A stretch of DNA of 64,000 nt from a virus: positions 3,120 to 67,119 of IMG/VR virus record IMGVR_UViG_3300046504_000032; one strand, given 5' to 3'. Positions within the stretch are counted from its first letter, which is position 1. Every line of letters starts with the position of its first letter. Below, piece after piece: positions 3,354 to 60,584 of this stretch. The position numbers were made by a program, and so were the translations under genes. The notes under the pieces are model-generated. The model was not told where the DNA came from and did not search any database. It was given only the letters and a program-made list of their open reading frames with translations.

Positions 3354-3821
3354 ATGAAACTAATATCTTTAACGCAAGAGAAATTTGCCCAAGTCGATGA
3401 CTGGAACTATGACTGGTTAAACCAATGGAATTGGTATGCGGTCTTTAATGGATATACGTTTTATGCTGCCAGACATCCCAAAGGTGAAAATAGAAGAATA
3501 TTACTGATGCACCGAGAAATTATGAACACTCCTGATGATATGGAAGTGGACCATCAAGACCACAATGGATTAAATTGTCAGGAATATAACATGAGAAACG
3601 CTACTCATGGTCAGAATGGCGCAAATAGAACTCCATATGGTAGTTCTAAATATCTTGGAGTAAATTGCGACAAAGAATATGGATATATTAGAGCAAGTAT
3701 AAAAGTTAATGGGAAACAAAAAAACCTCGGTACTTTTAAGACAGAAGAAGCAGCTGCTAAAAAATATGATGAGGCAGCCAAGCTATATCATGGCGAATTT
3801 GCAAACTTAAACTTCAAGTGA
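3354..3821 (+). CDS. HNH homing endonuclease with C-terminal AP2 domain
   Basis: MHREIM...VDHQDHNGLNC..NMR HNH motif and SKYLGV...LGTFKTEEAAAKKYDEAA AP2 motif. Confidence 0.92.
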   Translation: MKLISLTQEKFAQVDDWNYDWLNQWNWYAVFNGYTFYAARHPKGENRRILLMHREIMNTPDDMEVDHQDHNGLNCQEYNMRNATHGQNGANRTPYGSSKYLGVNCDKEYGYIRASIKVNGKQKNLGTFKTEEAAAKKYDEAAKLYHGEFANLNFK

Positions 3822-4261
3822 TGGATTTCTACGTTATCAGAAGCAAAAAAAAATTAGACGAACTATTTGAGACATTAAAACAGCGTTCACTCCCAATGAA
3901 GATAGCTGTACAAGATGTATATCCGCTAAGATCATTGGAGGCGAATAAGTATTATTGGGGAATAATCCTATACTATATTAGCGAAGCCACAGGACATACA
4001 CCGGAAGAATGTCATGAAGGTTATCGTAAGAAGTTTAACTATACTCAGGAATTTGTTTATAATAGACGGACCAGGCAATATCAGTTTAAGATTGGTGCAG
4101 GAACTACAGTGGTTGATGAGCATAAGTTCTACCAGTTTATTTTTGCGGTGCGTGCTGATGCTGAATTAGAACTCCACATCTGTATTCCTCTGCCTAACGA
4201 GACCTTCGTTAATGAACTAAATTTTGATTTTGAACGCAAACATCAAACTAAAAGAATATGA
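3818..4261 (+). CDS. NinB-like protein
   Basis: RSLEANKYYWG...GHTPEECHE pattern. Confidence 0.6.
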   Translation: MMDFYVIRSKKKLDELFETLKQRSLPMKIAVQDVYPLRSLEANKYYWGIILYYISEATGHTPEECHEGYRKKFNYTQEFVYNRRTRQYQFKIGAGTTVVDEHKFYQFIFAVRADAELELHICIPLPNETFVNELNFDFERKHQTKRI

Positions 4262-16800: not shown

Positions 16801-19800
16801 TACCCATTCCCTAAACTTTGCACTTGCCGGACTGTCAAGACTTGAATTAGAAGTGATAAACACTCCAATTCCTCCCGGCTTGAGCTGACGAATTCCTTTT
16901 GCAATGAAATAGTTATGCAGGTAGAACTTGGATATATCCTGATTCTTGGCATCGAATGGTGATGTTTTGCCAAATGGTACGTTTGTGATAATAAGATCTT
17001 GTGATGCAATAGGTTCATTGGATAATTCATACCCTTTCACATTCACTCTTGCCTGTGGATAGAGTTTCGTCATTATCCTGCCGGTGATACTATCAAGTTC
17101 GTATGCTTTGAGTATTGAATTGTCCTGCAGATATCCAGGCATTGCACCAAAGAAGTGACCTATACCTCCTGCAGATTCAAGTACATTACCTCCCCGGAAC
17201 CCAAGTTGTTCTGCCAGGTTCCACATCTGCCGGATAATAGGAATGGAGGTATAATGTGCATTGATTGTAGAATTTACAGCATTATTAAACTCATCAGGAG
17301 TTAATAGTGAGAGTAGTTTTTTATGATAGCCGCCATACTTTTTGTGCCATTCTTCATGCCACCTGGGTTCTGCCCATTTTCCCTGATCGAGAACTGTAGC
17401 AAGTCCTCCCCATCCGGTATATTTTGCAAGGATGTCCTTTTCTTCCGGAGTAGCATTCCGGTTTTCTTTCTCAAGTTTCTGAACTAATTCTATTGCAGAG
17501 ATATTGGCTCTTATCTTTGCAAATTCCCCTTTAGGAACGAATGCCTCATCAGTAATGACAAAGTTACGATCAGCTAAGTTTTCAGGCTGCGTTCTATTTC
17601 CGGTATCTGTCCTTTGAGTTCTCTCGACCACTCCGGAGGATCCTCGTCCCTCATCGGTGCTAAGAAGTCCGGTATTGTCGCCTCCTCTGCCTGGTTGCGC
17701 TGTCTCCCGGCTGCGATTAATTTCTGTATGTTCGCCTCCGCTTTGTCCACCATTGAGTTCAGGTAGTGTTGGAGTTTGTTCTGACGATACAGGTCCACCA
17801 GTTTCGGAAGGTCCCACTCCTCCAACCATTGGAGGTGTACCCTCGCCAGGGGTGTCTCGAATCCCTTTATCTCTAAGAGGTGTTGTGGCTTTTTCATGAG
17901 TGATATTTATATTATCAAAGTTACGTTTATCTGTAGATTTCTCATAAGAATCAGCAAATTTTTTAATTGTCCTTGCGAGTTCTCCGGCTGTAACATCGGC
18001 CTGAATCCATTGATTATTCATACCGGAATATTTCTTTGCCTTTGTGGTTAGTCTCCACAATATAGGACCATAACCCTGTCCATGTCCCTCAATTTTCCAT
18101 AATTCTGAATAATCTCCGGCAAATTCATTTGTCGGGTTGAACGGGATACTGACATACACACCGAGATCTGTTCCTGGCTTCCACAAAATAAAATGAGCAT
18201 CACCTCCTGCAGGTGCAAGATTTACATTGGAATATTCGATCTTCTTACCTTTCCTGTCGGTATCGTGTTCCCATCCAAGAAGTTTAGCGATCTCTTTTGA
18301 AAACTTAGTTACGTCTTTTTTGATGATGGGTTCAAGTCCCCTGTGAGGATATTCATGTGTACGATAATACTCCTCCGGTATTTTATATTCTCCGAGTAGT
18401 TGTAACTGGCTGTCGATCTCGGCTATCTGCCTGTCAATTTCTTCGGAAATTTGTCCTGCTTGTTCACGATCTGCAACATTCTCTGCTTGGTTGATGATAG
18501 CGCTTGCCTGATTTTCAATAGACGTAATGCTTTTTGATTCGGTTCCATTTTCTGTCTCCTCCTTTATTCTATTTGATTCTGTGATAGTCCTACCTTGATT
18601 TTTAAGATTATTCATCCATGTTTTCATGAATGAAAGTGTATCATTCATTCCTTTCTGGTCAATAACTTTACCTTCAGCAATAAATTCCTGATATATAGGA
18701 GGATTGCTTTGTTCAAAATTTAATGGCACTATAATATCAAGCGAAGGATATACTGCAATATCAATTCTTGGATCTGTCATTAAATCTCCTTCCTGAATGT
18801 AATTGTGCTCCATGATCAGACGATATGCCTTCGGGTCTGGAAATAACATGTGATATGAGCCAAGCGTTTGGGCTTCAATGACGAATGGCATAATAGCATC
18901 ACCACGTTTACCAGATTTAAAGTAATCTCCAACTTTAATACTTTTTAGGATCGGGATTGCTTTTAATATCTGTTTATGTGCTAAAAGAACACTCTGTCCA
19001 AAATGAGTATAAGGCATAGCATCCTTGAACTTCTGTAACTCCTTCTGTTCGGGTGTGAGTACTGGTTTCCCTTCAAACAGATCATTTACCAGTTTTAGTC
19101 CAAGTTTCTGTTTGATAGCAGCAACAATGCTCTCAGTATTGGTCCAGTCGAGTTTGTTATCCTTAATTAGTTGATTAATTTCACTATGATCAATGAGGTG
19201 ACTGGCATAGTCACGAGCCTTGATGAGATTGGTTTCCCAACCGTCTTTAGGTCTATATTCTATTGATTCCCCGGCAAATTCGGGTTTTGGTGAAGGCTGC
19301 TGCTCCGCACTACCGACACTTTCAGCCGGAGCAGTTTTCTCGCCTCCGTTTATTTCTTGCGTCTGCTCTCTGCCTGTTTCTGCAGATTGCTGAAGTGAGA
19401 GTTCATCTCCGGTACGTGTTTCTTCAAGGAGGACACTCTTTTCCGTTTCGGTAAGTTCTCCCTGTTGCTGCAAACTCTTGATTTCATCTTGTAGCCTCCG
19501 CTTTAAATCCGCTTCATCTATAGGTATATGACTGAAAACGGACTCTGGTTGTACTTCATTCTGGATATCATTATCGTAGAATGTAAAAGTTACATTATCA
19601 TTGTCTTTGTAAAGATCGTAAATCTTCCTGATATTAGCAAGAGAATTGGCAGATGTTTTTACATGGGTATCTATCCCTATGGACCTGCGTTCTTCTTTCA
19701 TCCTTGGAATAACGCCCTCAATATAGGCAGTAAATGGGTCTCTCCATACATAAAGTATATCAACTTCCTTTCCATTCTCAAGGGCTTTCTCGATACGTCC

Positions 19801-22800
19801 CTTACTGGTTTCGAAGTTAGCCATGTTACTGTCATAGATCAGATAAGGAGGATTTTCCTTTTCAAGTTTCAGGTTAAGGGCAGTTGTTTTTCCTGCACCG
19901 GTACCTCCGGCTGTCATTACAACATAATTATTCTGTTCACTTGCAGGTTCACCTTGTATCAGATCATCATACAGTTTCTTTGCAAAATCAGAAGCAGGGT
20001 CATGTACTGCCTGGGAGAATTCAGTCGGGTTATTGCGATAGTCAGGTGATAGCGACTTAGCATGATCACCAGATATCACATTCCCAAACTTACTAAGATA
20101 CTCAGCTTTGTATCTTTCATAGTCATCAGTCAGGGCTTTTGCGAACCTGTCGTGGACGATCCTGTGGATTCCTGTAAATTCCTGCTTACCTTCGCCTTGA
20201 GTTCTTTCAGGAGTTCCCTCTGCGCCTGCAGTATTGAGATTCCCTTTACCTCTGCCCTCTTTTGGACCAGTTGGTTGAATTGGTTTTTCAGTTGTTCCTT
20301 TGACATTTTCTAATGATTTTTTATAGGTTGCTTCATTATTTAACCATTCATTATTGAAATATTTACCGTCAATTTCCTTCCAGAGATCCAGGTCAACGGG
20401 TTTCATCGTGTTTGCCTTATCCCATCCCCACACCTTGAACTGATCTATCGGCATCTGCTTGATCTCACCTAATCCTCTCCACTTGGGTTCAAAATTTTGA
20501 AGATATCCTGCCCTTGCATCCCAATCACTTTCAAACCCTATCATTACCTTTGGCTCGTCATACTGTCCTGTATCAGGATTGATCTGATCAATGACGTAGA
20601 TATCCTGTCCTGGTTGTATATTGCCAAGATAAACATCCAAAGGTTCACCGTCAGGGGTAATTGTTCCGAGTATATGACCGTAATCATGGTTTAATGTCAC
20701 ACTCCATTTCTTACCACTTAGATCAGTCCCGGTCCTTATCATGCCCTTGGCTGTCTCAATGGAGATATCCATTCCAAGAATAGCGATATGCCCTTTCGGA
20801 TAAATGCCTGATTCTTTCTGAGCATCAGTAGGATTAGGTTCAACATCTTCCCGGGCTTCTTCGATCTCTCCCTTTATCTCATCTGCACTTTTTAGTCCCC
20901 CCGGGACCATCCTTGGTCCTTCATGTGTCTCATGTAGCAAGCGAGAATAGACTTTAAATAATTTCAGCATTGTAGGTTGCATCTCATCTGGCGAAGATGA
21001 TTGCCCTTTATAGAAAACATTTACTGAGGCAAAGTCAGGGTCCTCATCAACTTCAAACTTCCATCCCGCTTTCTCAACTCCGGATTCGATCTTTTTCATC
21101 AGGGCGATACCTTCTTCCCTGGTTTTAGGTTCGTCAATCTCTTGTTTAATGTCCTTCCAGAATCCCTCATAGTCAATCTTCGATTCAGCTTCCTCTTTTG
21201 CCAGTCTTGACATCTTGTCGAGAGGGGATTCTTCGGATGCAGGTATAAATCTTGGGTTATTATAAGCGTTCCAATCCTCGGGTCTATGCTGTACATCGGA
21301 ATCAGATATTAGCCTGAGTTTAGCCATACCTTTTTTGTCAGGTTCAATAACTTCATATTGTATGCCTGTGAACGTATCACGTATAAGATCACCTTTTTTG
21401 AAGTCCTTTGGATTTTGTTTCTCAATAGGTTTTGATGTAGGTTTTAACTTTTCAAGTATCTCTGTTAGTTTTGTGTTTTCTCCTTGATGTTCAATACCCC
21501 TACTGTCAAGTTCTCCGATTAATCTTGCAGCATAAGAAGATGGCAATGTTTTGACGAGTGCGCCTAGTTGATCTTTATGAAGTTCAATTTCTTTCTTGAT
21601 TGTTTCCATTGAAACATTCTCAGCATTAGAAACATCATCACGATTCATCCCGGGTCTCTCTGCTAGAATAGATTCTCTTACTGTTAATTTCTTCCCTTCT
21701 CTTTTCTTCAATACTGCAGCAAGTCTTTCTTTGCCAAGAGCTGAATTATCTTTTTGTAAGGATAGTAATTCATAATCTTTATTCTTTTCAGCATTATCAA
21801 TGATCTCTTGTTTCTGTCCTGCAGGAGTTTTTACAGTAGATATTACTTCCGGCTTCTCAATATTCTGTGTTACTATCTGCTGAATCTGTTTTTGATCCAT
21901 TCCGGAAATATCCTCATCACTATACCCAAGTCGTTTAAGTTTGGGCATTAAGAACTCCATTGGATTCAAGTTAATTATTGGTCCTTCCCTCCCCCCAATA
22001 ACAGGAGTAGCGCCTTCATGAGGCGCTTTCTCCTGCCCCCTCTCAGGCTTTGGTGCCTCGGCCTGAGCTTCCATTGGTTTTATATCGGGATAATATTTTT
22101 TTACCTCATCATAGATACCGGGATATTCTTTGAGTACTTCCGGAGGGACAGGTTTACCCTCTTTGATAGCCATTGCTACAGCGCCTTTATGACCGAACCA
22201 CCAAGGACCTACAGCTTTTCCTGATTCATCCCTCGGAGCCCAGGGCGACTTATAAGTGTCCTGATGCCATCCTGCTGTTGTCTTATCCTTCCATGCCTCA
22301 TATTGCTTCCCGGTCATCTGGTAGGGTTCTAAACCTTTGGGGTTTGTCTCTTTCAGATTTTTGGCTTCTTCAGCGGCTCTTTCTTCCTGGCTTGCAGGTT
22401 GCTCTTTCTCTTTGTTTTTTTTAACTGACTTTTCTTCCGTAACTGGTTTATTTTCAACAGAGGCACCCTTTTGGTCAGGGGTGACTTTAGGGGTGACTTC
22501 TGGTGTTAATGTCTTAATCTTATCATCGAGAGACTTCTGCAGATCGGGGTCAAGTATGATCTTTATTTTCTCAAGTGTCTTGAGTGATGAGGTATGGTTT
22601 ATTGCTCCCTCTATGGTAGAACGGTCAACCTCATCTTTCCCGATGAAGTATGACGTGACCATTTCCGGGAACTTCTTCTTGTACATCTTATCAAGTTCCT
22701 CGTCACCTTCAAATCTCAATCCATACAAGTCCTGTGGTGTCTCGGCTCCGATTATTGCGCCTTTGATATATCCTTTCGATACAGGGTTCCCGTCTTTCTC

Positions 22801-24732
22801 GTATATCGGAACGTCTGACTTGCGTACTTCTTTACCGTCAACCTTGACGGTTTCCTCTACGGGTTCCTCGAATTTGGCGTTTATATCCTTGAGTTTGTCC
22901 GGGGGAATTTCTATTGCTTCACCAAATTCTCCATTATCCTTAACCTCATTCACCTTGACGGTACCATCGAATCCTATCTCCTGCACCTCCCAATTCCGGC
23001 CCATGTAGGTTATCTCGTCCCCTACTTTTGCAGTCTTATGAGCGAGATCTTCATTAGCCTGTCTCTCGAGAGGGTCAATCGGTGCGCCAGTTTTTGGGTC
23101 TTTTATCGGTTCGTCTCCTGCGAATCCGGAGATATAACCCTTCTTTGCCCTGTAAGCATCGACCCCCATATCGACAAATTCCTGCGGGGTCATTGTCTTT
23201 TCAACCTTCCAACCATTGATAAACCGGCCTTCTCTGTCTATGATACGTACAAGTTTATCATTGACTATTATTGATCCGTCAACAGGATTACGTTCAATCC
23301 TGCTGAGTAAGGCGTATGTACCGTCATCAAGTACCTTAGAACCTTTCTGAAAATATCCCTTTCCGTCAACATCGGTCATCATGTTTACCGCTACCGGCTT
23401 ACCTGTCTTGGGATGAATCTCTGCCACTCTGTTCAGAAGGGAGGTCATTGTCCTTTCGGCATTATTGGTATATATCTCCTGTTCGATAACTGGCAATGCT
23501 TCCTGATTAGATTTCCACGCATCAAGAGCTTTCTCTCTCTCTCCATTGGTCATAGTGATCTGGTCAACGATATTTTCCCGGGCAATATCCTTAAAGTTCA
23601 TCTTACTGTCCATGACAGTTATCTTGTTTGGATCAGTTGGATGGTCCCCTACCTGTTCGTAAACTTTCCCGTCTTTATCCTGAATGATCGTTATTCCTGA
23701 TTTCTTGCGTCTCATGTAGTTGTAACTCTCATTCTGTGCTGCGGTTATACTACCAAGGAATGTGCCAAGGAACGCACCGTCCCGGAAGGACTTCAATCCA
23801 TCAGCAACGACATTCATAAGAGCGATCTTATCTTCCGGGTACTTGTTTAGGTTCTGCAGCATCTCCTGTGTCATAGTCATAACACTGAATGCTCCGCCTG
23901 TCTTGACTGCGTTCTTTCCTATTTTACCTGCCAGATTGAGATATTTTTGTGTTGCCCCTGGAACGTCTGCCAGGTATCTACGAAGAATATTTGATGCTAA
24001 TTCAGGATTTTCCCTGAGTACCGTTGAGGCAGCCGACCCTATCATTGAATTGACTGCCTTACCTCCGGCTCCTGCTACCTCTCCGGCAAGGTACATGATC
24101 AGTCCCGACCCAAGTCCAACAGCCTGTTTCTGAAACTCCGGTGTCTTGTGTCCTGTTTTTTCATCATAAAGTTCTGATTCGAGTATTGAGTTACCGTATG
24201 CACTTGTAGCGAAAGCAGCCATAGTCCCCTGTCCTATGATAGCAGGTATAGCAGCGAGAGAGGTACCCCCGGTAGCTAATGATGCAGCTGCAGACGCACC
24301 CATGCCTAATATCATTGGCATCCATGCACCTACTGAAGATAAGCCACTCTCGGTATAAATCTCATTATTCTTTTTTAGGTTCTCTCTTGCTTTTTCTTTC
24401 AGCACTTCAGATGCTATCATGCCATTCATCTGCCCTGTTCCCGGGAAACTGCCAGGCATTCCTACTATTGGCAGTATTTCTGCAAGGAATGACTGCAACC
24501 CTGATCCCATCTGTAACCAACCTTTTCTTGACTGTTCCCTGAACTTACTATCCTTGCTGAACATAAAAGGCCTCTCAACCCATTCATTATGCTGTGCTGC
24601 CTGTTCTGCTGTCTGCGGGTCAAAAGTAGAAGTAGGGAGTGGTGCTCCCGCTGTTTTTTTCTTCTGTATATCCGCTAATGACGGGAATCCTTTAGGTCCT
24701 GTCTGTAGGGTTTGATCTACTGTATCTGGCAT
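7894..24732 (-). CDS. Giant polyvalent virion/ejection protein (DarB-like methyltransferase-SNF2 helicase plus accessory domains)
   Basis: 5612 aa. Approximate domains: PPase-like 20420-20830; P-loop kinase AGGTGAGKTT near 19900; DUF1249-like 18590-18830; MTase VLESAGGIG and NVPFG 16440-17560; helicase VGTGKT/VDEAH/QRNGRILRQGN 13300-15150; HEVFAH metallopeptidase near 11860; LPD38-like C-terminus. Confidence 0.9.
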   Translation of the reverse strand: MPDTVDQTLQTGPKGFPSLADIQKKKTAGAPLPTSTFDPQTAEQAAQHNEWVERPFMFSKDSKFREQSRKGWLQMGSGLQSFLAEILPIVGMPGSFPGTGQMNGMIASEVLKEKARENLKKNNEIYTESGLSSVGAWMPMILGMGASAAASLATGGTSLAAIPAIIGQGTMAAFATSAYGNSILESELYDEKTGHKTPEFQKQAVGLGSGLIMYLAGEVAGAGGKAVNSMIGSAASTVLRENPELASNILRRYLADVPGATQKYLNLAGKIGKNAVKTGGAFSVMTMTQEMLQNLNKYPEDKIALMNVVADGLKSFRDGAFLGTFLGSITAAQNESYNYMRRKKSGITIIQDKDGKVYEQVGDHPTDPNKITVMDSKMNFKDIARENIVDQITMTNGEREKALDAWKSNQEALPVIEQEIYTNNAERTMTSLLNRVAEIHPKTGKPVAVNMMTDVDGKGYFQKGSKVLDDGTYALLSRIERNPVDGSIIVNDKLVRIIDREGRFINGWKVEKTMTPQEFVDMGVDAYRAKKGYISGFAGDEPIKDPKTGAPIDPLERQANEDLAHKTAKVGDEITYMGRNWEVQEIGFDGTVKVNEVKDNGEFGEAIEIPPDKLKDINAKFEEPVEETVKVDGKEVRKSDVPIYEKDGNPVSKGYIKGAIIGAETPQDLYGLRFEGDEELDKMYKKKFPEMVTSYFIGKDEVDRSTIEGAINHTSSLKTLEKIKIILDPDLQKSLDDKIKTLTPEVTPKVTPDQKGASVENKPVTEEKSVKKNKEKEQPASQEERAAEEAKNLKETNPKGLEPYQMTGKQYEAWKDKTTAGWHQDTYKSPWAPRDESGKAVGPWWFGHKGAVAMAIKEGKPVPPEVLKEYPGIYDEVKKYYPDIKPMEAQAEAPKPERGQEKAPHEGATPVIGGREGPIINLNPMEFLMPKLKRLGYSDEDISGMDQKQIQQIVTQNIEKPEVISTVKTPAGQKQEIIDNAEKNKDYELLSLQKDNSALGKERLAAVLKKREGKKLTVRESILAERPGMNRDDVSNAENVSMETIKKEIELHKDQLGALVKTLPSSYAARLIGELDSRGIEHQGENTKLTEILEKLKPTSKPIEKQNPKDFKKGDLIRDTFTGIQYEVIEPDKKGMAKLRLISDSDVQHRPEDWNAYNNPRFIPASEESPLDKMSRLAKEEAESKIDYEGFWKDIKQEIDEPKTREEGIALMKKIESGVEKAGWKFEVDEDPDFASVNVFYKGQSSSPDEMQPTMLKLFKVYSRLLHETHEGPRMVPGGLKSADEIKGEIEEAREDVEPNPTDAQKESGIYPKGHIAILGMDISIETAKGMIRTGTDLSGKKWSVTLNHDYGHILGTITPDGEPLDVYLGNIQPGQDIYVIDQINPDTGQYDEPKVMIGFESDWDARAGYLQNFEPKWRGLGEIKQMPIDQFKVWGWDKANTMKPVDLDLWKEIDGKYFNNEWLNNEATYKKSLENVKGTTEKPIQPTGPKEGRGKGNLNTAGAEGTPERTQGEGKQEFTGIHRIVHDRFAKALTDDYERYKAEYLSKFGNVISGDHAKSLSPDYRNNPTEFSQAVHDPASDFAKKLYDDLIQGEPASEQNNYVVMTAGGTGAGKTTALNLKLEKENPPYLIYDSNMANFETSKGRIEKALENGKEVDILYVWRDPFTAYIEGVIPRMKEERRSIGIDTHVKTSANSLANIRKIYDLYKDNDNVTFTFYDNDIQNEVQPESVFSHIPIDEADLKRRLQDEIKSLQQQGELTETEKSVLLEETRTGDELSLQQSAETGREQTQEINGGEKTAPAESVGSAEQQPSPKPEFAGESIEYRPKDGWETNLIKARDYASHLIDHSEINQLIKDNKLDWTNTESIVAAIKQKLGLKLVNDLFEGKPVLTPEQKELQKFKDAMPYTHFGQSVLLAHKQILKAIPILKSIKVGDYFKSGKRGDAIMPFVIEAQTLGSYHMLFPDPKAYRLIMEHNYIQEGDLMTDPRIDIAVYPSLDIIVPLNFEQSNPPIYQEFIAEGKVIDQKGMNDTLSFMKTWMNNLKNQGRTITESNRIKEETENGTESKSITSIENQASAIINQAENVADREQAGQISEEIDRQIAEIDSQLQLLGEYKIPEEYYRTHEYPHRGLEPIIKKDVTKFSKEIAKLLGWEHDTDRKGKKIEYSNVNLAPAGGDAHFILWKPGTDLGVYVSIPFNPTNEFAGDYSELWKIEGHGQGYGPILWRLTTKAKKYSGMNNQWIQADVTAGELARTIKKFADSYEKSTDKRNFDNINITHEKATTPLRDKGIRDTPGEGTPPMVGGVGPSETGGPVSSEQTPTLPELNGGQSGGEHTEINRSRETAQPGRGGDNTGLLSTDEGRGSSGVVERTQRTDTGNRTQPENLADRNFVITDEAFVPKGEFAKIRANISAIELVQKLEKENRNATPEEKDILAKYTGWGGLATVLDQGKWAEPRWHEEWHKKYGGYHKKLLSLLTPDEFNNAVNSTINAHYTSIPIIRQMWNLAEQLGFRGGNVLESAGGIGHFFGAMPGYLQDNSILKAYELDSITGRIMTKLYPQARVNVKGYELSNEPIASQDLIITNVPFGKTSPFDAKNQDISKFYLHNYFIAKGIRQLKPGGIGVFITSNSSLDSPASAKFREWVVTEGNADFVGAIRLPNNAFAENAGTEVTTDIVIFRKRIGDIISPNAKDFRITVPIGDAETKDGLPVKIEVNQYFAENPDNMLGKMMLAHEAGGGGLYSADRQTLAPIRGKDLITELATRIATMPKSIMETAENKPPEELIAANDEERNGTIVNRGGKIYEVVNGDLALTEWNDKTIKVKGKSYKTNKIADDYLKIKSLANDLITMEQSPDADPKVLETVRANLNKEYDGFFKSYGKINNNKALEFLEDDSEHNAVAALENVSHTSELDKNGRNIRKEFIDKSDIFTKRVNFPVIEPTTAGNVEDALNISISYRNAVDIPYMASILGMTEEQATQELLEEGLVFRNPATEQIEDKDTYLSGFVRTKYNTALEASKDNPLYLKNVEALKSVVPKDIPGQLVKFSLGTPWIPGDMVKQFVKDHLDVNATIEYSNATGHWIVRGHDGQYGAKNKTAGTEEFSGLELVEKSLNLRTPRVVRTSYDYVDGRRVKTEKVDIEATAQAQGKMDDIMDTFVNYVYDKPEYVEQIETVYNAKYNDFIEKNYNAPSFDHFPGASKDIKLYGIQRVGVMRSLKESTLLAMQVGTGKTFTMITTAMEMRRLKLAKKPMIVVQNSTLEQFSNSFRELYPAAKILVPPPLNKMKAEKRQLIFNKIAYGDWDSIIIPQSFLDFIPDDPARERAYIQERIAELQQVLDEVDDGSWNNPIASDLKKSIEALNEQMFKMDNPTKKKTKKVKDIARSNLSKETQLEKQAFRRKDDVRLFEKMGVDALFVDEAHAYKKLGFATALQNIKGIDTKGSKRAFGLYMKVKFVQEKMNGRNVILSTGTPISNTMAEVWTMMKYIAPEILKKHNINTFDQFASTFGSIEPSLEFTAAGKFKVVKRFKSYKNAPELMRLFRANSYVVLTEDVPEFKEAKTIPKLKDGKHTQIIIPQSEGVKTAMEKFKNILEAWEQLPGKEKRLQRHVPLVIFGRAKQAAIDLRLINSANYDDPGSKTNEVVKQVKRIYDETTSYKGTQLVFSDIFQSPDLGSTVPRFNLYEDIRDKLMKLGVPATEIVIIKDQSGGQREAIYDRVNKGEVRIVLGSTGKLGTGVNVQDLLKAIHHIDAPIRPMDFEQRNGRILRQGNQHADMGLPVEVVTYGVEKTLDATAFQRLDIKMKFINQMMKGDKLDREANDAADEEDATDMTFAQMMATLSGSQYAILHTQKMYELKKLQTGRRNYERGMIDAKKGLQNARTIVGYLTDALMDVKNATELIRKYFKPLEGKGEGTTSGLNIKSITFNGKQYQGEKLLEGFNLELTKMIDLFKAGVGENKTSILKINDIPVPIFLSYDGRNDRFVYQVEPVQSSSAEAKITGYCTSGAGFFQSLKIQFNNFLDGKLKDVEKRLAQHQNDIPTFENTLTKKFAQQEKLDNTEREVRDLEEKMKEETENGMNKNPKPIVTPTRDQKIAWLREQVSNPEHGEKTREILTDYIKQYDEAPLEATKDLILEEIASKSRMIKEKFDEIDASKDNLLDEDIEDSPEPSPSYMRRPKEPDLNDENMRPIWDNAQFPKYQATPGTFAGEEVAVMREHEMMRRAQIMSEYTGVPIIIVRTKQELPKHLVKDAIKRFGDLRKSEIPSVYDRANKKVYLVVEDNKSVSDLVSNMSHEVFAHYGLEALLGVEPYLRVLQLTYTGMSPVDVVELANRYNVPESDWKTVAEEYIGYIAGNGQINPNLWQRIIAYIRNLIRKILNISMSKSEIMALLKKAKDNLTNNKPEVTDYANIGDYLDALTAYSTRTGKAEGGFGYGIHASESRAIEEAIGKGNQDYRTYFGVAESQIGTKATGWIEKALANNDFDSNKALDYLESKMTKYQNFERHYRIVKDARNYLFDNEPKNPTAMYKVLVGKGKAPDELNFLSWDKPIDYDQQENIVNQLDAENKFDITVSGAFHSGEALYNKITDLYGSDREASLFLSRAGIDGMKKDQSMVIYDNTPVDVLNQIAYMRRPKSTFVGEHLANAGKVYTNQAETKRNWQETVNGIREYIQDNNLPVRKFEEEIIKRGGLQPNDAKPYRDISLSFGRQETLYKDFMKTKMKPIQESVAKIIKGGMSGENILPYIISKHAIERNMVFRAREIDEFIMKNPDATDQDIAELKEEIADKDYSGVMAFDVNDEFTNPDELAQTISDEFEEQVSKPLIDELWSNIHNASSAILDIWEAGQQLSPEQKQMYLEQFKYFVPLRGWREGAAKDLVYVKGEGFKKSLMHATGRKSLADNPLAYMQSVAFSAIGEQVDNEVKTSMLRLLMRNLQSADLYDLATVKKLYYIRVDLPDGTHEWEPTLDRPSQELFDSGEAVTKIYNEYQKLRVPKQAREHEVIVRRQGGDVVMIFKGKMLSVAQAMNKRNFMYHNIFSKVKDARTLNQAVTGLSYMNNFLKAAYTSWNIVFPFTNFLRDVQEASMTQLIRGDAGQKIVVNYHRAFPSIIRFLRDKLDMNNPDDVKLRDFYLTGGATGFTHLLSAEDLEKDLMDEINRMVGRGTVRGDIKHFMHESVQIISMWNQVFEDATRFSVYLTSIDLGKTKEEAASDAKEASVNFNRKGKSSKLYDSIYAFWNVAWQSLQKNFKLGKDYPKRFAAVASAFMALGFLEALLNHATDDQDPENDYYNINPYMRENYLVLPNLPRLISGESKGNKYLSIPLPQFWRGFKSIGSLAYDLTQGKTTVKEAITKAMLNFGSAMSPVDIGGFSKTGEFSLAPIVPTIIKPFYEIATNRNYMGYTIAREPFDKAQKKLLANSGLGKSNVNPAAKFFTDMLFRWGGGENATKYYIDKTGEEKKVPGFLDINPSFIEHLFKGYTGGSGAVFSDLITTISQALKPDQEVDFKNIPFVNKFLRETPESKWNIISDYYNLKDVVGVHKGLKRAYQQQAEAGGSTTGIEATEGSNYYQQYQDIVDSYDKDIKEISDQVDFTDVEGTKPIYDLMQQCIVDIKALKEQYKMK
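17574..17897 (-). CDS. Nested +1-frame gene inside the giant ORF (TnpV-like helical protein)
   Basis: 107-aa globular-looking ORF with its own TAACTTTG box (17923-17916) and AT-rich start. The host frame here is low-complexity linker. Confidence 0.65.
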   Translation of the reverse strand: MKKPQHLLEIKGFETPLARVHLQWLEEWDLPKLVDLYRQNKLQHYLNSMVDKAEANIQKLIAAGRQRNQAEEATIPDFLAPMRDEDPPEWSRELKGQIPEIERSLKT

Positions 24733-24739
24733 AGCATGG

Positions 24740-26059
24740 TTATTTAACTGCAGTAGAATCCTTTTGTGCTTTAATCATTTGCCTCCATTCCCTCATAATA
24801 TTATTGGCATAATCATCAGCATCTTTTGACGGTACTGTTCTTCCTATAGCTTTGTACCGGTCAATATATAAGGATTTTATCTGTTTCAGTTTTTTACCAT
24901 CTTCGATATTCCACTGTAGAATTGTCTGAGCATCTATCGTCACTTGCTCTTTTGATGCATCATCAAGATCAGTAACTCCGTCCGGTCCTTTGACTGCTGT
25001 TGGTTTTACTGGTCCTGTTGGTTGTGCAGGTTGGACTGTTTGACCTGTTTTTTGTCCGTATATGCCTTCATATACACCTGCAGGGAGCAGGTTATCTCTG
25101 ATGTAGTCCCAATTATCGGCAATAGCTTTACCCAAAGCCTCCGGCTGTGAGGTTTTGTTATTGGCGATATCTCTGAACACTTTCGCTAAGGTCTGGTCGT
25201 ATGGACTTTTCCCTATTGAGAGCTGTTGTACGATATGGGTTACTAACCCAGGACTGATATAGATTGTTTGTTTGGTATCCGGGGTGACGAATTGCAATGT
25301 CTCTTTATCCCCGGCTTTCGGAGGAGTGAATACGTCAATCTCCGGTTTTGCTCCACCAGGTAGCAGTCCTATACCCCTGTCAAACTTGGCCTTCTCCCTG
25401 GCTATCCCTACCTGTAGTTGTGCTTCTATTGCAGCCTGTACCTGTTTGCGTACTCCTTCTGCCTCGTTTTCCATCCCTCTAAGCCGGTATTGTTTCTCAA
25501 GCAGGGCGTTCTCCCTGATGAAGTTATCAAGTTCTTTCTCTGCAGCCAATGATTCCTGGTGAGATCTCTCGGCCTGTTTCTCTGCTTTATCTACTGCTGC
25601 TGCATCCTGAGCCATGCCATACTGCACGTCTGCCTGTTTAAGAGCCATTTTCTTTGTACTAATTCCTTCAAGTTTCTGTTTGTATTCTAGATCGCTTTTG
25701 GCATATTCATTGACAGCATTCATGATAAATGGGTTTGGAGCCCTTTGTCCTACGGGAGCTCCGCCACCTGCAGCAATACCTTCCCCGAGAAGTCTGAATG
25801 CTTCCCCGAGAGAGTTGGTGCGCATGATCTTCTGTTGTGTAGCCTGACTGGTCTCTTTCTCGGCTTTGGCTTTTGCTTCCTCATCTTTCCAATCGAAGAT
25901 AGCGGAATAAGGACCCGTCATATCGTTAGGTCCGGCTGCCTTAGCTGCCTTGATACGTTTGCGCACAGCTTCACTCCTGGCAAATTCATCGGCATAGTTT
26001 GTTCCTTTGATGACAGGGATGGGTGGATCCGAAGAAAAGTCTAATCTTGCCATATTCAA
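24740..26059 (-). CDS. Probable DNA ejection (internal virion) protein
   Basis: Helical and Ala/Gln-rich with a glycine-rich segment, directly upstream of the giant gene. Confidence 0.6.
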   Translation of the reverse strand: MNMARLDFSSDPPIPVIKGTNYADEFARSEAVRKRIKAAKAAGPNDMTGPYSAIFDWKDEEAKAKAEKETSQATQQKIMRTNSLGEAFRLLGEGIAAGGGAPVGQRAPNPFIMNAVNEYAKSDLEYKQKLEGISTKKMALKQADVQYGMAQDAAAVDKAEKQAERSHQESLAAEKELDNFIRENALLEKQYRLRGMENEAEGVRKQVQAAIEAQLQVGIAREKAKFDRGIGLLPGGAKPEIDVFTPPKAGDKETLQFVTPDTKQTIYISPGLVTHIVQQLSIGKSPYDQTLAKVFRDIANNKTSQPEALGKAIADNWDYIRDNLLPAGVYEGIYGQKTGQTVQPAQPTGPVKPTAVKGPDGVTDLDDASKEQVTIDAQTILQWNIEDGKKLKQIKSLYIDRYKAIGRTVPSKDADDYANNIMREWRQMIKAQKDSTAVK

Positions 26060-26700
26060 TCTCCTTTCAGGTGTTCTTTCTGCATATTAAGTAATCCGAT
26101 TATCCTGGGGATCTGTTCTTCTACCATGTGTCTTTGTTCTTTAGACATTACATTGGTATACTTAAAATTAACTCCGACAAAACCATCCTCTTTCCCGTCA
26201 AATTGCCGCATCAGGAAAAGATAACAAGACTTAAATTTCCATAACTCCATATCTCTTTTAAAGTTGAGATCTGGGCAATCGTTCACATCAGCCACGCAAT
26301 AATCATATAACGTAGCTAACTGCGCAAACGCCTGTGAATATCTGGAATTAAGGACTGCTACGCACTTATCCATCATAGGTAAATCTGTTCCTCCTGCAGT
26401 CTCATGGGTAAGAGTGAATTTCTTCATTGGTAGTCCGTTAACATAATTACCTCCGTTATGGAATCTGCCAATGACTATCTTAGTAGACTTCAATTCAAAT
26501 TTTAACTTGCATATGATCTTCTGTACAATAGTGCTATAACAACTGTCTTCTTTTACAGAATATTGATTTGCGTCATTTGCAATTTTGACTGCGGCTGGTT
26601 TGACTAACTTATAAAATTTGAGCCATCCCAAAGTCAATACGCCGATTAGGAGCAGTGTTATCACATCTATTGGGGTTCTTGAGTTAAATAAACCTGTCAT
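26056..26700 (-). CDS. Single-TM protein with GAF-like domain, putative T4 T-like holin
   Basis: N-terminal TM helix, then RFHNGG...KFTLTHE...GFVGVNF GAF-like pattern. Confidence 0.55.
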   Translation of the reverse strand: MTGLFNSRTPIDVITLLLIGVLTLGWLKFYKLVKPAAVKIANDANQYSVKEDSCYSTIVQKIICKLKFELKSTKIVIGRFHNGGNYVNGLPMKKFTLTHETAGGTDLPMMDKCVAVLNSRYSQAFAQLATLYDYCVADVNDCPDLNFKRDMELWKFKSCYLFLMRQFDGKEDGFVGVNFKYTNVMSKEQRHMVEEQIPRIIGLLNMQKEHLKGD

Positions 26701-27163
26701 TTCTTTATCTTTTTTACACCAATTCTTACATTGTCAATTATCTTTCTGGCAGAAGTGGAGTCCAGAAGAAACTCATTTCGTTCTTTTTTTTTTCACTTAC
26801 TTCAAAGATGCGTTGTACTTCCTGTAATTCTTCTTTTGTCGGAACTTTTCTCTCCATATAATCTTGCATATTTGAATTAATTATAGAAAGTCTTCTTACT
26901 CCTCTGTTTATGGTACGCAAACTATCACTGAAATTTTTAAAGTTATTGATCATTACACTTCTGAACGCTTTACCTTCCGCATGTTCTATTGAATCATACT
27001 TTATCCATGTGTCAATCCTTACCACTTGGTTTGTACTCTTGGTCCTTTTCTGTTCTGCCTTTACACCCTGGGTATATATCAGGATGACGATACTGGCTAT
27101 TGCGGTTGCTCCACCGAATACTCCTCCGATCCACTTAGCAAGATTTAAGACTTTTTCTGACAT
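26697..27163 (-). CDS. Membrane-anchored coiled-coil protein with short (stop 26738) and -1 frameshifted (stop 26697) forms
   Basis: N-terminal TM and an A10 run containing A_AAA_AAG. The -1 frame ends RIGVKKIKK and overlaps the next ATG. Confidence 0.7.
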
Positions 27164-56489: not shown

Positions 56490-58444
56490 TAATATACAGT
56501 ATATTTTGAGTTAAGATAATTCACTACCAATGTTTGATCCGAACCACTATCAATCTTAGTCCTGACCCACACTTCTTTTACTGATATATAAGCACCATTC
56601 GTTGCATTATCATCACCTATGACAAATTTAGCATATGTGCTTGTAGCAAGAGTACCAACTACCGCACTATTAGCATTTAGTTGTATTTTGGAACCATTTA
56701 GCGCATCTTCATTATATATTATCCTTAAAATATAATAAGTATCATCATTATAAAAAGATGCTCCAGTTGCAAAGGTTTCACCACCACCAATTATTGTTAA
56801 GGCAGTAGGTTCGGTTGCAGATTGTCTAAAACTATTAGAACCTAATTTAAATAAGTAGTCACTTGCAGTATAACCATGAACACTTATTACAGCATAAATC
56901 ATTGATGGCTGAGCATAAGAAAATGGGTCTGCTATCAAATAATCATCTGTGCCATCAAAATCCACCTCACCATTTACTGCGTCCCATGTTGGACGGGAAG
57001 TGAGAGTGCCTATTGCATGGTTATCATTCCCAGATATATCATTCCATTGATTTATAAGACTTCCTGTCAAGCTGAAATTATCGGCATCGGCAATAAGTGC
57101 TTCTTTTGTATAAGTATCGGATAATAAGAATGAAGGTGCAGAAACAGATGGAACAGGCATATTATTTGTCACCGCCTTATTAACCCAGTTAACAACCTTA
57201 TTTCTTGATGAGTCCTGTAACTTTTTACCTCCAGATACATTAGCTAATGTTGCAGTGTAATCAAGCAGATAAGTTGAGCCATAATTACCTACGCTGTCCA
57301 TTACTATATAAAGACTGTCATGTCCTATCAAACTCTTATTAATCCCGTAAGTATTGCCATCTTCAGTAATATGGAATGCTCCTTTATTTGGTATTGAATC
57401 CTGCCTTACATCAGTTGTGTCGAACATAACCAGAACAGTATCATCTGCAAAGGTTCCAAGTTCGGCACTGAGAAATACAGGAGCCTCAAAATCATGTCCT
57501 GCCCCTAAATAAGCAAGTATATTTGTTAATGTCCCCCGAAGATTAGTATTACTGTCCTTTAGACTATCTATCACCTGATAGAGATATGTGGTATCGTAAG
57601 AACCACCTCCATAATCATGCAGTTGTTTATAAGTAACATAATTCCCCTGACTTTGTTTTACTGAATCTGCGAGCGAAATACCTGTTGTTGCATTGGAGAG
57701 ATAAACATCCATAGAATCATTAATATTCTGATGTGTGGCATATCTTGTATTGGATTGTGTTTTTGTATATCTGGCAAGTAAACTATCTGCAAGTACAGTT
57801 ATAGTTGATTGTGCCTGATTATGTGCTGTTGGTGTCCGGGCATCAGAGAGTCTTGCATCGTTACCGGCTGTGAAATTCGTAGCTCCAGTGCCAAATGACC
57901 CCGTAGTTAATACTCCAGATGTAGTGGTAATTAAAGGAAGATTCGCTGTTGATCCTATTGCCCCGGCACTTGTTATATTTCCGTGTGCATGACTGGTATT
58001 AGCCTTTAAGTCTATGCGGGCAGATAAATGAGTTGTATCAGTCGATCCGCCGCCGCCGCCACCAACAGACCTCGCATAAGCTTTTGTAGCGACCGTATCA
58101 GTTGTACTTACTTTCTGCACACCAAGAAACACTGGGTTAAGCAGTCTCGCATATCGCTGAAGCATTGCTGTCGTATCTGTTTTAGACAACTTCAATCCAA
58201 TATTTGTAGTATTGGCATTGGTCTGAAGGATCGTACGGTTTGTCTTAGACATTGCACTACGTAGACTTTCACCTGTCCCAGAATTAGCACTTGTACCTAT
58301 GTTGATTGTATCAAGCTGATCGCCTATGTTCCTTGAGTGGGATCTTTTGACAATAGAACCACCATCAGTCTGTGACGTATAATAATATTTCGAACACCCT
58401 GCCAACAGGATCAGACTTGAGAATAAGATTAATAGCTTTTTCAT
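56489..58444 (-). CDS. Tail-fibre-like protein with lipoprotein signal and C-terminal lectin-like domain
   Basis: MKKLLILFSSLILLAGC lipobox; INIGTSANSGTGESLRSA, HAHGNIT and GNDARLSDARTPTAH fibre motifs; W.DISGN.NHA and FDGTDDYL ConA-like motifs. Confidence 0.7.
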   Translation of the reverse strand: MKKLLILFSSLILLAGCSKYYYTSQTDGGSIVKRSHSRNIGDQLDTINIGTSANSGTGESLRSAMSKTNRTILQTNANTTNIGLKLSKTDTTAMLQRYARLLNPVFLGVQKVSTTDTVATKAYARSVGGGGGGSTDTTHLSARIDLKANTSHAHGNITSAGAIGSTANLPLITTTSGVLTTGSFGTGATNFTAGNDARLSDARTPTAHNQAQSTITVLADSLLARYTKTQSNTRYATHQNINDSMDVYLSNATTGISLADSVKQSQGNYVTYKQLHDYGGGSYDTTYLYQVIDSLKDSNTNLRGTLTNILAYLGAGHDFEAPVFLSAELGTFADDTVLVMFDTTDVRQDSIPNKGAFHITEDGNTYGINKSLIGHDSLYIVMDSVGNYGSTYLLDYTATLANVSGGKKLQDSSRNKVVNWVNKAVTNNMPVPSVSAPSFLLSDTYTKEALIADADNFSLTGSLINQWNDISGNDNHAIGTLTSRPTWDAVNGEVDFDGTDDYLIADPFSYAQPSMIYAVISVHGYTASDYLFKLGSNSFRQSATEPTALTIIGGGETFATGASFYNDDTYYILRIIYNEDALNGSKIQLNANSAVVGTLATSTYAKFVIGDDNATNGAYISVKEVWVRTKIDSGSDQTLVVNYLNSKYTVY

Positions 58445-58875
58445 ATAATATAAAGTTTAAAATTCGAAGGTAAGTATTTATTTAAGTTCTGTAATGCAAT
58501 GTCAGGATGAACAATATCTATCGTTCCATTACCATCAATATCCATCCAGTCAGTCCCCGGTATCTGACAACCAAGAGTATCTTTCAAAAAGTTCCCGATA
58601 TGAATCATTATACCTTCCCTTCCTGGAACATCTTTAATCCAGAATACATTGGGATGCCCTTTATAAGAATATTTGATAACATCATAAACGCCAGAAGGTA
58701 TACAGGAAATATTATGTTCGTTATTCAACCAGGGAAGCTCCATACAGAAACACCGATATAATTCTGTAACACCGTCCATAACAAGATAAAGTCCCTGGGT
58801 TGAATCAATTTTATATTTCCGTATCAGAATAAGTTTTGGCATCTTATATTTTATAATCATTTCTGAACATTTCAT
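58441..58875 (-). CDS. DUF5675-like (L,D-transpeptidase-like) protein
   Basis: ELPW...SCIPSG.Y, DVPGR.GI.IH.GN...DT.GC. Confidence 0.85.
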   Translation of the reverse strand: MKCSEMIIKYKMPKLILIRKYKIDSTQGLYLVMDGVTELYRCFCMELPWLNNEHNISCIPSGVYDVIKYSYKGHPNVFWIKDVPGREGIMIHIGNFLKDTLGCQIPGTDWMDIDGNGTIDIVHPDIALQNLNKYLPSNFKLYII

Positions 58876-58885
58876 TTCTTAACTC

Positions 58886-59299
58886 TTATCGAATCAAACT
58901 ATGTAGACCTAAAGCTATAAGTACACCAATTATTGCGGCTATAAGCACACGAATAATAGTGCTGGGCCATCCGGCATATATCTCAAGGACTCTTAATCTT
59001 AAATCCTGTGTATCCTGTCTTTGTTCAAGCAATTTAAGCCTCTCTTTTATACATATCACATCGTTTCGTATCTCAGTAATGAGCTTATTCTGCTTTTCAA
59101 GAGATAAGAACATGCGTTCATTCTGTTGTTGGATGACCTCTGCGAGGGCTTTGGTGAGTTCCACTATGTTCTTATCAAAGGCTTTATTCCAATCCTCATT
59201 ATGTGCATCGAGAGACCTCTTTATGAATGCCCTGTCATCAATATTTAAAGACATCCCCTTGAGCGTCTTATCAGATACGGGAACTATTTTTTTCGCCAT
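58886..59299 (-). CDS. Coiled-coil protein with C-terminal TM
   Basis: Heptad region followed by a hydrophobic tail. Confidence 0.75.
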   Translation of the reverse strand: MAKKIVPVSDKTLKGMSLNIDDRAFIKRSLDAHNEDWNKAFDKNIVELTKALAEVIQQQNERMFLSLEKQNKLITEIRNDVICIKERLKLLEQRQDTQDLRLRVLEIYAGWPSTIIRVLIAAIIGVLIALGLHSLIR

Positions 59300-59397
59300 T
59301 GTTTTATTATATATAAGATAAATTTCAAAGTGTAGAATACCATTGTCAATGCCACAAATAATCCAAATCCAATTATGATATAAAGTCCTGCATTCAT
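59284..59397 (-). CDS. Small single-TM protein (37 aa)
   Basis: MNAGLYIIIGFGLFVALTMVFYTLKFILYIIKQWRKK; its ATG overlaps the -1 frame stop of the upstream gene. Confidence 0.6.
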   Translation of the reverse strand: MNAGLYIIIGFGLFVALTMVFYTLKFILYIIKQWRKK

Positions 59398-59824
59398 TTT
59401 ATCTTCTTAACTCCTATTTTCAAACTATCAAATGTTATCTTGGTATGTAAGGAATCATTAGCGAACTTGGCTCGTTGTTTTTTTTTAACTCATAATTCTC
59501 CATTTTCAGTCCTTCAAAGTATTTCATAAAGCTGTCTGTCTTGGTAAGATTATCCCTCCAATAAAGAATTACCGATTTCTGCAAAGCATTATGAGCGGCA
59601 GCATAGTTATCGACCTTTCTGTTATACCTCATTTGCCTTACCGCAATGGAGTCCAATTTAGTATCCATATTCTTTACGATAATCTTTAGATCGCCTGTTT
59701 CATTGGCTATATCTTCCTGTTTCCCCACCCAAGATGAAACCGCCCAAGCAGTACCTCCCACAAAAGCTATAGCCGATACAATACCCATAAAATAACCAAT
59801 ATATTTCATTAATGTTTTAAACAT
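59394..59824 (-). CDS. Membrane-anchored coiled-coil protein with short (stop 59435) and -1 frameshifted (stop 59394) forms
   Basis: N-terminal TM and an A9 run; the -1 frame ends KIGVKKIK. Confidence 0.7.
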
Positions 59825-60472
59825 TTACGCTACCTTAAGTCCTCTAAAATTATTCTTATTTCCCTTATTCCATGGAGTCGCTCCCTCTCTGCTTGGGGGT
59901 TTTATTCCATGCTGTATATTATATTCTCTTTGTTTCTGTTTAGTTTTTTCAGATGATCTCTGCCCTTTATTCCAAGCAGGTTGACCTAAGTGTTTTTCTC
60001 TATTTTTCCTTATAGATTCCAGTGAAGCCTTTTTGCCTTTTCTCCCAGAAGGTTTCCCCTTTCTGCTCATTTTAGCCAATGCCTCTTTAGAATAATTTCT
60101 ATGCTTACCCTTAAACGGAGATGCTATTCCTATATGAGATTTCCTGTTTTTTTCTACTATTTCTTTTGATCGTTTTATTCCTATATTACTATTGGCTATT
60201 AATCTTATATTAAACCAAGGATTTAACAAATCAATAAAATATTGTTCATTATTTATTATACTACTCTTTTCACATTCTAACAAAATCAAAAATGACAAAT
60301 CATCTATACCGTATTTATCATAATGTCGTTGAAGTTTAATTGAATGATGATTTCCTTTCTTTAATGAACTCAAATGACAGCGCCATCTTTGCGTAATATT
60401 TATAGCACTCCCAATATAACACCTATCGGGTTTTGTCTTAGATTGTATTTTATAAATTCCACTTATTTTCAT
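59825..60472 (-). CDS. GIY-YIG homing endonuclease with NUMOD3-type repeats
   Basis: SGIYKI...YIGSA...RW..H, EQYFID, PWNKG repeats; ATG 60472 preferred. Confidence 0.92.
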   Translation of the reverse strand: MKISGIYKIQSKTKPDRCYIGSAINITQRWRCHLSSLKKGNHHSIKLQRHYDKYGIDDLSFLILLECEKSSIINNEQYFIDLLNPWFNIRLIANSNIGIKRSKEIVEKNRKSHIGIASPFKGKHRNYSKEALAKMSRKGKPSGRKGKKASLESIRKNREKHLGQPAWNKGQRSSEKTKQKQREYNIQHGIKPPSREGATPWNKGNKNNFRGLKVA

Positions 60473-60491
60473 AATATAAAGATACAAAAAA

Positions 60492-60584
60492 TTACATCAC
60501 GCCCCAGGCAATTCCCCCAACAAGCGCAACTGCTGACGCTACTGCCATGAAGTAACCGATGTATTTTAATATTAACTTTAGCAT
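60492..60584 (-). pseudogene. Truncated duplicate of the 5' end of the 59824 gene
   Basis: MLKLILKYIGYFMAVASAVALVGGIAWGVM* compared with MFKTLMKYIGYFMGIVSAIAFVGGTAWAVS. Confidence 0.75.

Follow-up and report, generated by a model that had tools for sequence, protein, structure and literature searches.

A run of nine or ten A as a probable recoding site near the 3' end of a family of small phage membrane-protein genes

Results

The window and its phage

The window, i.e., the whole stretch of 64,000 nucleotides that was analysed, represents bases 3120-67119 of a 67,119-base virus record that is rated complete and of which sequences are found in peat-metagenome runs. It has a G+C content of 41% and encodes a P22-type portal (5905-7890), tail-fibre-like proteins and a GIY-YIG homing endonuclease. 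Judged by the portal, the nearest named relatives are three Bacteroides phages of 64-68 kb (38-40% identity), one of which shares with the window the order of a giant open reading frame (ORF) followed by the portal gene. The giant ORF of the window, a single frame of 5612 aa on the minus strand (7894-24732), adjoins the portal gene, and Bacteroides phage BS-TP4 carries at the same position an ORF of 5391 aa that is annotated as hypothetical.

Two genes with a frame break at a run of A

The minus-strand ORF at 59435-59824, designated copy 2, encodes a protein of 129 aa with an N-terminal membrane segment (about residues 12-30), which would be the short isoform. Near its end it contains the sequence TTA AAA AAA AAC, with a run of nine A (A9) at 59478-59486 that represents the putative slip site and holds the heptamers A_AAA_AAA and A_AAA_AAC in phase. 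Frame 0 continues for 13 residues beyond K-K-N, ends in ...ELKKNNEPSSLMIPYIPR and is closed by TAA at 59437-59435. The -1 frame has a TGA one codon 5' of the run, then reads KKK QRAKFANDSLHTKITFDSLKIGVKKIK and stays open for 28 codons past the run, which gives an extension of K plus 27 residues (59394-59480, minus strand) that ends in IGVKKIK and lacks a start codon for its separate expression. Its TGA (59396-59394) overlaps in an ATGA the start codon (59397-59395) of a minus-strand ORF of 37 aa with one membrane segment (59284-59397). An earlier note, made from the DNA of the window by itself, had described the slippery sequence, the stop of frame 0 and the ATGA overlap in this manner, and all three were found as described.

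The length of the run was verified in Logan contigs of three data sets, X1, which is possibly the source of the record, and the further runs X2 (58928-59546) and X3 (59379-59575), all of which read A9 with no gaps and no other letters. Because contigs of X2 and X3 also cross the run without a gap, A9 is not a slip of one assembly; the depth of X2 and X3 is about 3-4, and assembled contigs cannot reveal minority run lengths.

Copy 1 is a minus-strand ORF of 141 aa at 26738-27163, at about 32.7 kb from copy 2, which also encodes an N-terminal membrane segment. Its putative slip site, GAA AAA AAA AAG, contains a run of ten A (A10; 26784-26793, minus strand) with the heptamer A_AAA_AAG in phase. 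In its -1 frame a TGA directly 5' of the run is followed by KKK ERNEFLLDSTSARKIIDNVRIGVKKIKK, giving an extension of K plus 28 residues (26697-26786, minus strand) that ends in IGVKKIKK, and its TGA (26699-26697) overlaps in an ATGA the start of a 214-aa ORF (26056-26700, minus strand). The presence of a paralog with the same frame break and an IGVKKIK tail, as claimed in the earlier note, therefore stands with respect to layout and tail; its run is A10, and homology between the copies is concentrated around the site and the tail.

Pairwise alignment of the two -1 tails yielded 15 identities in 31 positions, against 22 in 135 (16%) for the bodies in a global alignment, and blastp of the two bodies reported the membrane segment only (E 0.04). 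The two window copies thus appear homologous mainly around the site and the tail, which corrects the earlier reading of their relation. The shared IGVKKIK is encoded by seven codons that differ at five third positions between the copies. Among the 29 ungapped codons of the tail region, the ratio of synonymous to non-synonymous differing codons is 7:15 in the -1 frame, 3:18 in frame 0 and 1:20 in the +1 frame. This excess of synonymous differences in the -1 frame and the higher identity of the tails support the proposal that retention of the break in two diverged copies reflects selection.

The window contains only three A/T runs of at least nine. Shuffled sequences give as many (4 pattern matches against a shuffle mean of 2.33), and the number of runs is therefore unremarkable, but their placement is remarkable, as copy 1 and copy 2 each contain one of the three, at equivalent positions. 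The third, an A9 run at 3845-3853 on the plus strand, encodes S-K-K-K-L near the start of the ORF at 3818-4261, and the other frames stop within 10 codons. As an in-frame Lys run with only short alternative frames it was rejected as a further recoding site; it would nevertheless be a likely place for RNA polymerase to slip.

Relatives with DNA sequence

Scanning of JGI metagenome contigs with copy 1 and its one homologue detected five loci (L003-L007), the last of which covers only the first 21 codons of the family gene. L003-L006 belong to two lineages (L003/L004 and L005/L006) and three JGI projects. All four contain GTA AAA AAA AAC, i.e., an A9 run, and have a -1 frame that is closed 2-8 codons upstream of the run and open for 31-35 codons after it. 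Their tails read KKKQ..(R).F..DS......D....I.IKKI[KR], and F..DS...D...I.[IV]KKI[KR] is the pattern they have in common with the window copies.

Together with the two window copies these loci make six cases with DNA, from about 4 lineages. A run of nine or ten A is present in all six (A9 in five, A10 in one), the -1 frame is closed 0-8 codons upstream of it and open for 30-35 codons, the frame-0 stop lies 41-44 nt before the -1 stop, and the -1 stop overlaps the next start codon (ATGA in four, TAATG in two). An ATG, GTG or TTG from which the whole tail could be expressed separately was found in none of the six. Tail identity between the cases compared amounts to 39-51%, versus 16-37% for the bodies. 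The tails of L003 and L004 differ by a single change, which is synonymous in the -1 frame but gives K instead of R in frame 0. Between L005 and L006, one indel cleanly adds a codon to the -1 frame, whereas in frame 0 it replaces I by TQ; tail indels between lineages are all multiples of three. Hence the layout recurs in four out of four further loci, which extends the case for selection beyond the window, and the -1 frame is under selection.

Among the metagenome relatives, the portal-side and lysis-side family genes share 81-83% DNA identity in the body and only 64% in the tail. The window copies show the opposite, with 16% protein identity in the bodies and 48% in the tails. L004 and L006 derive from one metagenome and may therefore be two paralogs of a single phage.

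Relatives known as proteins and codon usage at the site

A profile search of 1.84 billion representatives returned 20 proteins at E <=0.001, one of which is copy 1. The motif x-K-K-N (K-K-K in one) occurs at residues 113-135 in 18 of the 19 others, where it is followed by 3-26 residues that align with nothing. Three more members, obtained in a word-indexed search, all have the motif, so that x-K-K-N/K is kept in 21 of the 22 non-window proteins, the exception being a truncated entry of 75 aa. Alignments of 20-23 members have no invariant columns other than those of the two Lys, and the Asn shows a conservation of about 90%. In 21 of 21 proteins K-K is preceded by E, V, L, I or K, residues that all have codons ending in A. 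The run itself is known at the DNA level for the six family genes and is deduced from the residues for the other 22; these 22 proteins come from JGI, ENA and Logan gene calls, and some of them may be encoded by L003-L006. None of the 22 carries the tail in frame at its C-terminus, and a fused, unbroken form was found in 0 of 28 family genes (22 proteins, four metagenome loci and two window copies).

The all-A spelling is not a matter of codon bias, because AAA-AAA encodes only 17 of the 85 Lys-Lys pairs and TTA only 20% of the Leu codons in the 35 ORFs of at least 150 codons in the window. In each of the five A9 cases the Asn codon is AAC, whereas the window phage uses AAT more often (295 versus 607). 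This could reflect a requirement of the heptamer or simply the conserved Gln at the beginning of the tail. The near-identical members P0014 and P0025 part right after K-K-K and end after 3 and 17 residues, respectively; a difference in A-run length between close relatives could produce this divergence.

Copy 2 was not recovered by the copy-1 profile. Against a family profile built without it, hhalign gave a probability of 85% (E 6.6e-6) for residues 91-128, around the site, and blastp against member P0019 gave an E of 1e-5, which suggests that copy 2 is tied to the family only distantly. The word-indexed protein search with copy 2 returned only copy 2 itself. Relatives were detected neither in viral contigs scanned with copy 2, the 214-aa protein and the family alignments A4 and A5, nor in genome contigs scanned with family alignments A4 and A2, and among GenBank phages the only DNA matches were to homing endonucleases. 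The tblastn search with copy 1 and P0007 gave no match. Neither did the family profile against Bacteroides phage BS-TP4, where an empty answer proves little.

Gene neighborhoods

Downstream of the 37-aa ORF that overlaps the tail of copy 2, the minus strand encodes a 137-aa protein with a C-terminal membrane segment (58886-59299) and a 144-aa DUF5675 protein (58441-58875), a candidate endolysin of the peptidase type. DUF5675 is grouped on basis of structure with C82-like peptidase lysins in passages of a 2026 preprint (10.64898/2026.04.11.717860), and no sequence relative of the window protein was found in the PDB. This order mirrors that of L006, where a 55-aa membrane protein with two segments, the family gene and a 39-aa membrane protein are followed by a C-terminally anchored protein of 103 aa, a GH108+PG_binding_3 endolysin and a lipoprotein-like ORF. 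The 137-aa protein of the window occupies the place equivalent to the 103-aa protein of L006, to which it is 39% identical (E 2e-16), and the DUF5675 protein lies at the position of the GH108 endolysin.

The 214-aa protein encoded after copy 1 combines an N-terminal membrane segment with a GAF-like fold, the latter deduced from Atlas look-alikes (feature scores 0.97-0.98, TM about 0.8); this fold is common to many viral clusters in the Atlas, and Pfam did not detect GAF in the protein. It is 67% identical to a 219-aa protein encoded 3' of the family gene in L003, and copy 1 and the family genes of L003 and L004 all have the 214- or 219-aa protein downstream and a portal gene nearby. In L004 and L007 the family gene follows a gene for a multi-segment membrane protein of 103-109 aa. 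Family genes thus recur in two settings, one being a cluster of lysis type and the other a pair of membrane-protein genes close to the portal. The first is represented by copy 2, between holin-like small membrane proteins and the endolysin candidate, and the second by copy 1, before the membrane-anchored GAF-like protein near the portal. 'Holin-like' is a label that refers to membrane architecture and not to a family match; in PHROGs, the small proteins so labeled in L004, L006 and L007 remained unnamed.

Features of the proteins

Both copies have the N-terminal hydrophobic segment that the earlier note assigned to them. The coiled coil that it also assigned to both is weakly supported, as in a crude heptad test shuffled sequences reached the score in 1% (copy 1) and 15% (copy 2) of the trials. 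Both flanks of the membrane segment are positive, and the membrane topology is therefore ambiguous. The -1 tails have a net charge of +7 to +10, versus -2 to +1 for the frame-0 ends, and their last residues alternate between hydrophobic and basic. Pfam and PHROGs returned no match for either copy, and for copy 1 the Atlas offered no look-alikes other than viral clusters without names and generic helical proteins that stayed below the bar for naming.

As to a holin assignment, a single membrane segment and, in the window and L005/L006, a lysis-type context were observed; copy 1 is not beside an endolysin, and the family copies matched no Pfam or PHROG holin family. As to an inner-membrane spanin (i-spanin), an N-terminal membrane segment is present, the heptad signal is weak and the topology ambiguous, and a lipoprotein-like ORF lies beyond the L006 endolysin. 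An outer-membrane spanin (o-spanin) embedded in the -1 frame was rejected, since this frame has no start codon and no lipoprotein signal peptide, and a separate small gene in the -1 frame was rejected for want of a start codon as well. A tail assembly chaperone G/GT pair was rejected because the neighbors are membrane proteins, an endolysin candidate, a tail fibre and a portal; moreover, these chaperones are soluble, whereas the family protein has an N-terminal membrane segment.

Discussion

Recoding at the A run

The layout of a closed and then open -1 frame around a run of A is conserved across the family cases with DNA. Comparison of these sequences leads us to propose, with a probability of about 0.8, that the run has been selected as a recoding site, through which a long form of the protein is made. 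The family would then consist of small phage proteins with an N-terminal membrane anchor, a helical body and, at the 3' end of the gene, a programmed -1 site of nine or ten A. Standard decoding would produce a short form that ends 13-18 residues past the run in an unconserved and roughly neutral stretch, and a register moved back by one base at the run would produce a long form with a conserved tail of 27-32 residues carrying a charge of +7 to +10, the stop codon of which would fall on the start codon of the next gene. The production of this long form, the machine responsible for the shift and the ratio of long to short form are what we infer.

A -1 shift equals one extra A in the message, and slippage of the ribosome and of RNA polymerase therefore both fit; the term '-1 frameshift' of the earlier note should be corrected to cover either. 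According to passages of PMC5009743, runs of nine A or T cause efficient slippage of bacterial RNA polymerase in vivo. In the phage genes, RNA polymerase would most likely slip on the A9 or A10 template, so that a fraction of the transcripts gains one A and is translated in the usual way, and -1 slippage of ribosomes on the in-phase heptamers of the same run may contribute. Within the recoding reading we give about even odds to a mainly transcriptional event and appreciably lower odds to a mainly ribosomal one, with the rest assigned to both machines acting together. Conservation of the phase of the site across the family is predicted by a ribosomal mechanism and not required by slippage of RNA polymerase.

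Programmed frameshifting by the ribosome only, on faithful transcripts and as in E. coli dnaX or the phage G/GT genes, is unlikely in our estimation but deserves serious weight. Canonical heptamers are in phase in all six DNA cases (A_AAA_AAC and A_AAA_AAA in copy 2 and L003-L006, A_AAA_AAG in copy 1), the x-K-K-N phase is kept in 20 of 23 aligned family proteins, copy 2 included, and the use of AAC in the A9 cases, against the genome-wide preference for AAT, may point to such a site. However, no stimulatory RNA structure stood out, either as hairpin or as pseudoknot signal downstream, in 80-nt folds on each side of four sites (8 folds, z -1.2 to +1.6), and the alignments showed no Shine-Dalgarno-like or other common purine-rich element upstream. 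Moreover, conservation of K, K, N and a preceding codon ending in A means that all nine A appear to be conserved, which is more than either heptamer needs, and a run of nine A is itself expected, on the passages available from PMC5009743, to make bacterial RNA polymerase slip, so that faithful transcripts are improbable in the first place. It is also conceivable, albeit with a low probability, that only the short frame-0 protein is made, the stretch before the next gene being the translation-initiation or regulatory element of that gene and the open -1 frame incidental. The last 15 or so nt before the next start (AAAAAGATAA[AG]) are indeed the best conserved DNA of the tail, and A-rich leaders are usual before genes in Bacteroidota-type genomes. 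Such a leader would not explain the invariant K-K-N site throughout the family, nor a -1 frame that in six of six cases is closed just 5' of the run and open for 30-35 codons, nor indels that are all multiples of three; moreover, F..DS...D is found 15-25 codons 5' of the next start, and its residues persist despite synonymous changes (e.g., GAC/GAT).

The break might also lie in the DNA itself. Homopolymers are classic sites of sequencing error, and one extra A would heal both breaks of the window, so that a miscount would turn each gene into one unbroken ORF; however, the A9 run is crossed without gaps in contigs of X2 and X3 besides X1, the same break occurs in four contigs from three metagenome projects, and 21 of the 22 family proteins stop in frame 0 after the site, with the fused form seen in none, which makes this explanation highly improbable. 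Scarcely more credit can be given to a contingency locus, i.e., an on/off switch at the DNA level in which replication slippage varies the run and the long protein is made only by the minority of genomes that have an additional A. Long runs of A are mutable, and the divergence of P0014 and P0025 right after KKK could reflect such a difference in run length. Against this, not one of the 28 family genes shows the fused state, even if contigs cannot exclude minority variants, and the same 'off' length is seen in lineages that differ throughout the rest of the gene.

Putative role of the tail and coupling to the next gene

The gene context indicates that the family has its role in membrane or lysis gene clusters. 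The gene 3' of the tail varies by locus, being that of the 214-aa GAF-like protein, a 37-39-aa membrane protein or, in L005, a homing endonuclease. Since the tail is conserved despite these differing downstream genes, a common target of the tail, such as the membrane, the protein itself or a host factor, appears more likely than the product of the next gene. Our best guess is that the basic tail would alter the activity or the partners of the membrane protein on the cytoplasmic face, which may result in antagonistic or differently timed forms. The overlap of the long-form stop with the next start in all six cases makes it possible that the downstream gene is coupled to the slip; such overlaps are also simply common in packed phage operons. 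By analogy with known systems it may be speculated, with considerable reserve, that the A run acts as a setter of ratios, in which slippage would fix the proportion of neutral-ended to tailed forms, the forms would oppose each other like holin and antiholin or would gate partner membrane proteins, termination of the long form would couple the next gene in the manner of MS2, and the two copies would control two modules, one for lysis and one with the GAF-like protein by the portal.

Known recoding systems

Programmed recoding that leads to a C-terminally extended minor product is well known, with dnaX, G/GT and capsid genes as examples in passages of PMC5009743 and PMC10885494. The genes described here represent a new family that, to judge from the alignments, uses this known kind of recoding. 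The closest likeness is to dnaX of Thermus thermophilus, which, as passages of PMC5009743 describe, exploits transcriptional slippage on nine A/T, with a homopolymer of 9 on the coding strand, no need for RNA structure and two products that differ at the C-terminus. That gene is a cellular replication gene with the products tau and gamma, whereas the phage family encodes a membrane protein that the shift would lengthen by a conserved basic tail, and slippage is here only proposed.

The A_AAA_AAG sites of E. coli dnaX and IS elements resemble the site of copy 1, which has A_AAA_AAG in phase, and share the -1 direction. E. coli dnaX has an upstream Shine-Dalgarno-like element and a downstream hairpin, whereas folds and alignments of the phage sites display no such signals and the run is longer than the heptamer. 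A conserved -1 frameshift in the tail assembly chaperones G/GT of tailed phages was reportedly described by Xu, Hendrix and Duda in 2004. As in those genes, the frameshift rather than the sequence is conserved, and the long form, in the case of the new family by proposal, is a C-terminal extension produced by a minority event; the two are nevertheless related neither in sequence nor in position, since the family is not found between the major tail and tape-measure genes, and its proteins are membrane-anchored with an extension of only about 30 residues.

In phage MS2, a frameshift in the coat gene feeds the lysis gene (Kastelein et al. 1982, as cited in passages of PMC5009743 and PMC10885494). 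Shifted ribosomes there terminate beside the start of a downstream lysis gene, to which the overlap of the -1 stop with the next start of a membrane or other gene bears likeness; the MS2 shifted peptide has no function of its own, whereas the tail of the phage family is conserved as protein, and coupling in the family is hypothetical. The lambda S105/S107 holin-antiholin pair arises from a dual start, i.e., two N-terminal start codons, and its forms differ by one Lys. The likeness here is that one membrane-protein gene of a lysis cluster has two forms that differ by positive charge at one end, whereas the family would add +7 to +10 by a C-terminal change of frame, and any holin activity of its members is hypothetical. 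In a limited literature search on phage frameshifting together with holin, spanin or transcriptional slippage, no title among the matches listed dealt with a membrane protein of a lysis cluster.

In gene calls, all known family members end at the frame-0 stop, and the conserved tail is consequently missing from every database entry seen. The family adds to a short list of proteins of which the recoding site is the most conserved feature, and places such a site in membrane and lysis clusters of phages that are related by portal to Bacteroides phages, the lysis systems of which are poorly known. If the two forms do differ in activity, they would constitute a C-terminal, slippage-based counterpart of the dual-start holin/antiholin principle, and locking the gene in the short or the long state would offer a simple handle on the timing of lysis.

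Mobility of the locus

The family gene and the GAF-like gene of L003 (1166-2047) adjoin a portal of the Phage_portal_3 type, and the pair in the window lies near a P22-type portal; because the pair is thus found with different portal types, it travels between phage lineages. Homing endonuclease genes are associated with the family at two places. The GIY-YIG gene of the window (59825-60487, minus strand) lies directly upstream of copy 2 and is preceded by a 30-codon 5' remnant (60492-60584, minus strand) of another, diverged family gene that is cut off before the endonuclease gene. The remnant has only about 70% DNA identity to the start of copy 2, and it therefore represents an old allele and not a recent duplication. 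The GIY-YIG/NUMOD3 endonuclease gene of L005 (988-1635) has its point of insertion precisely at the ATGA junction that follows the tail. The family locus thus seems to be a repeated target of homing endonucleases.
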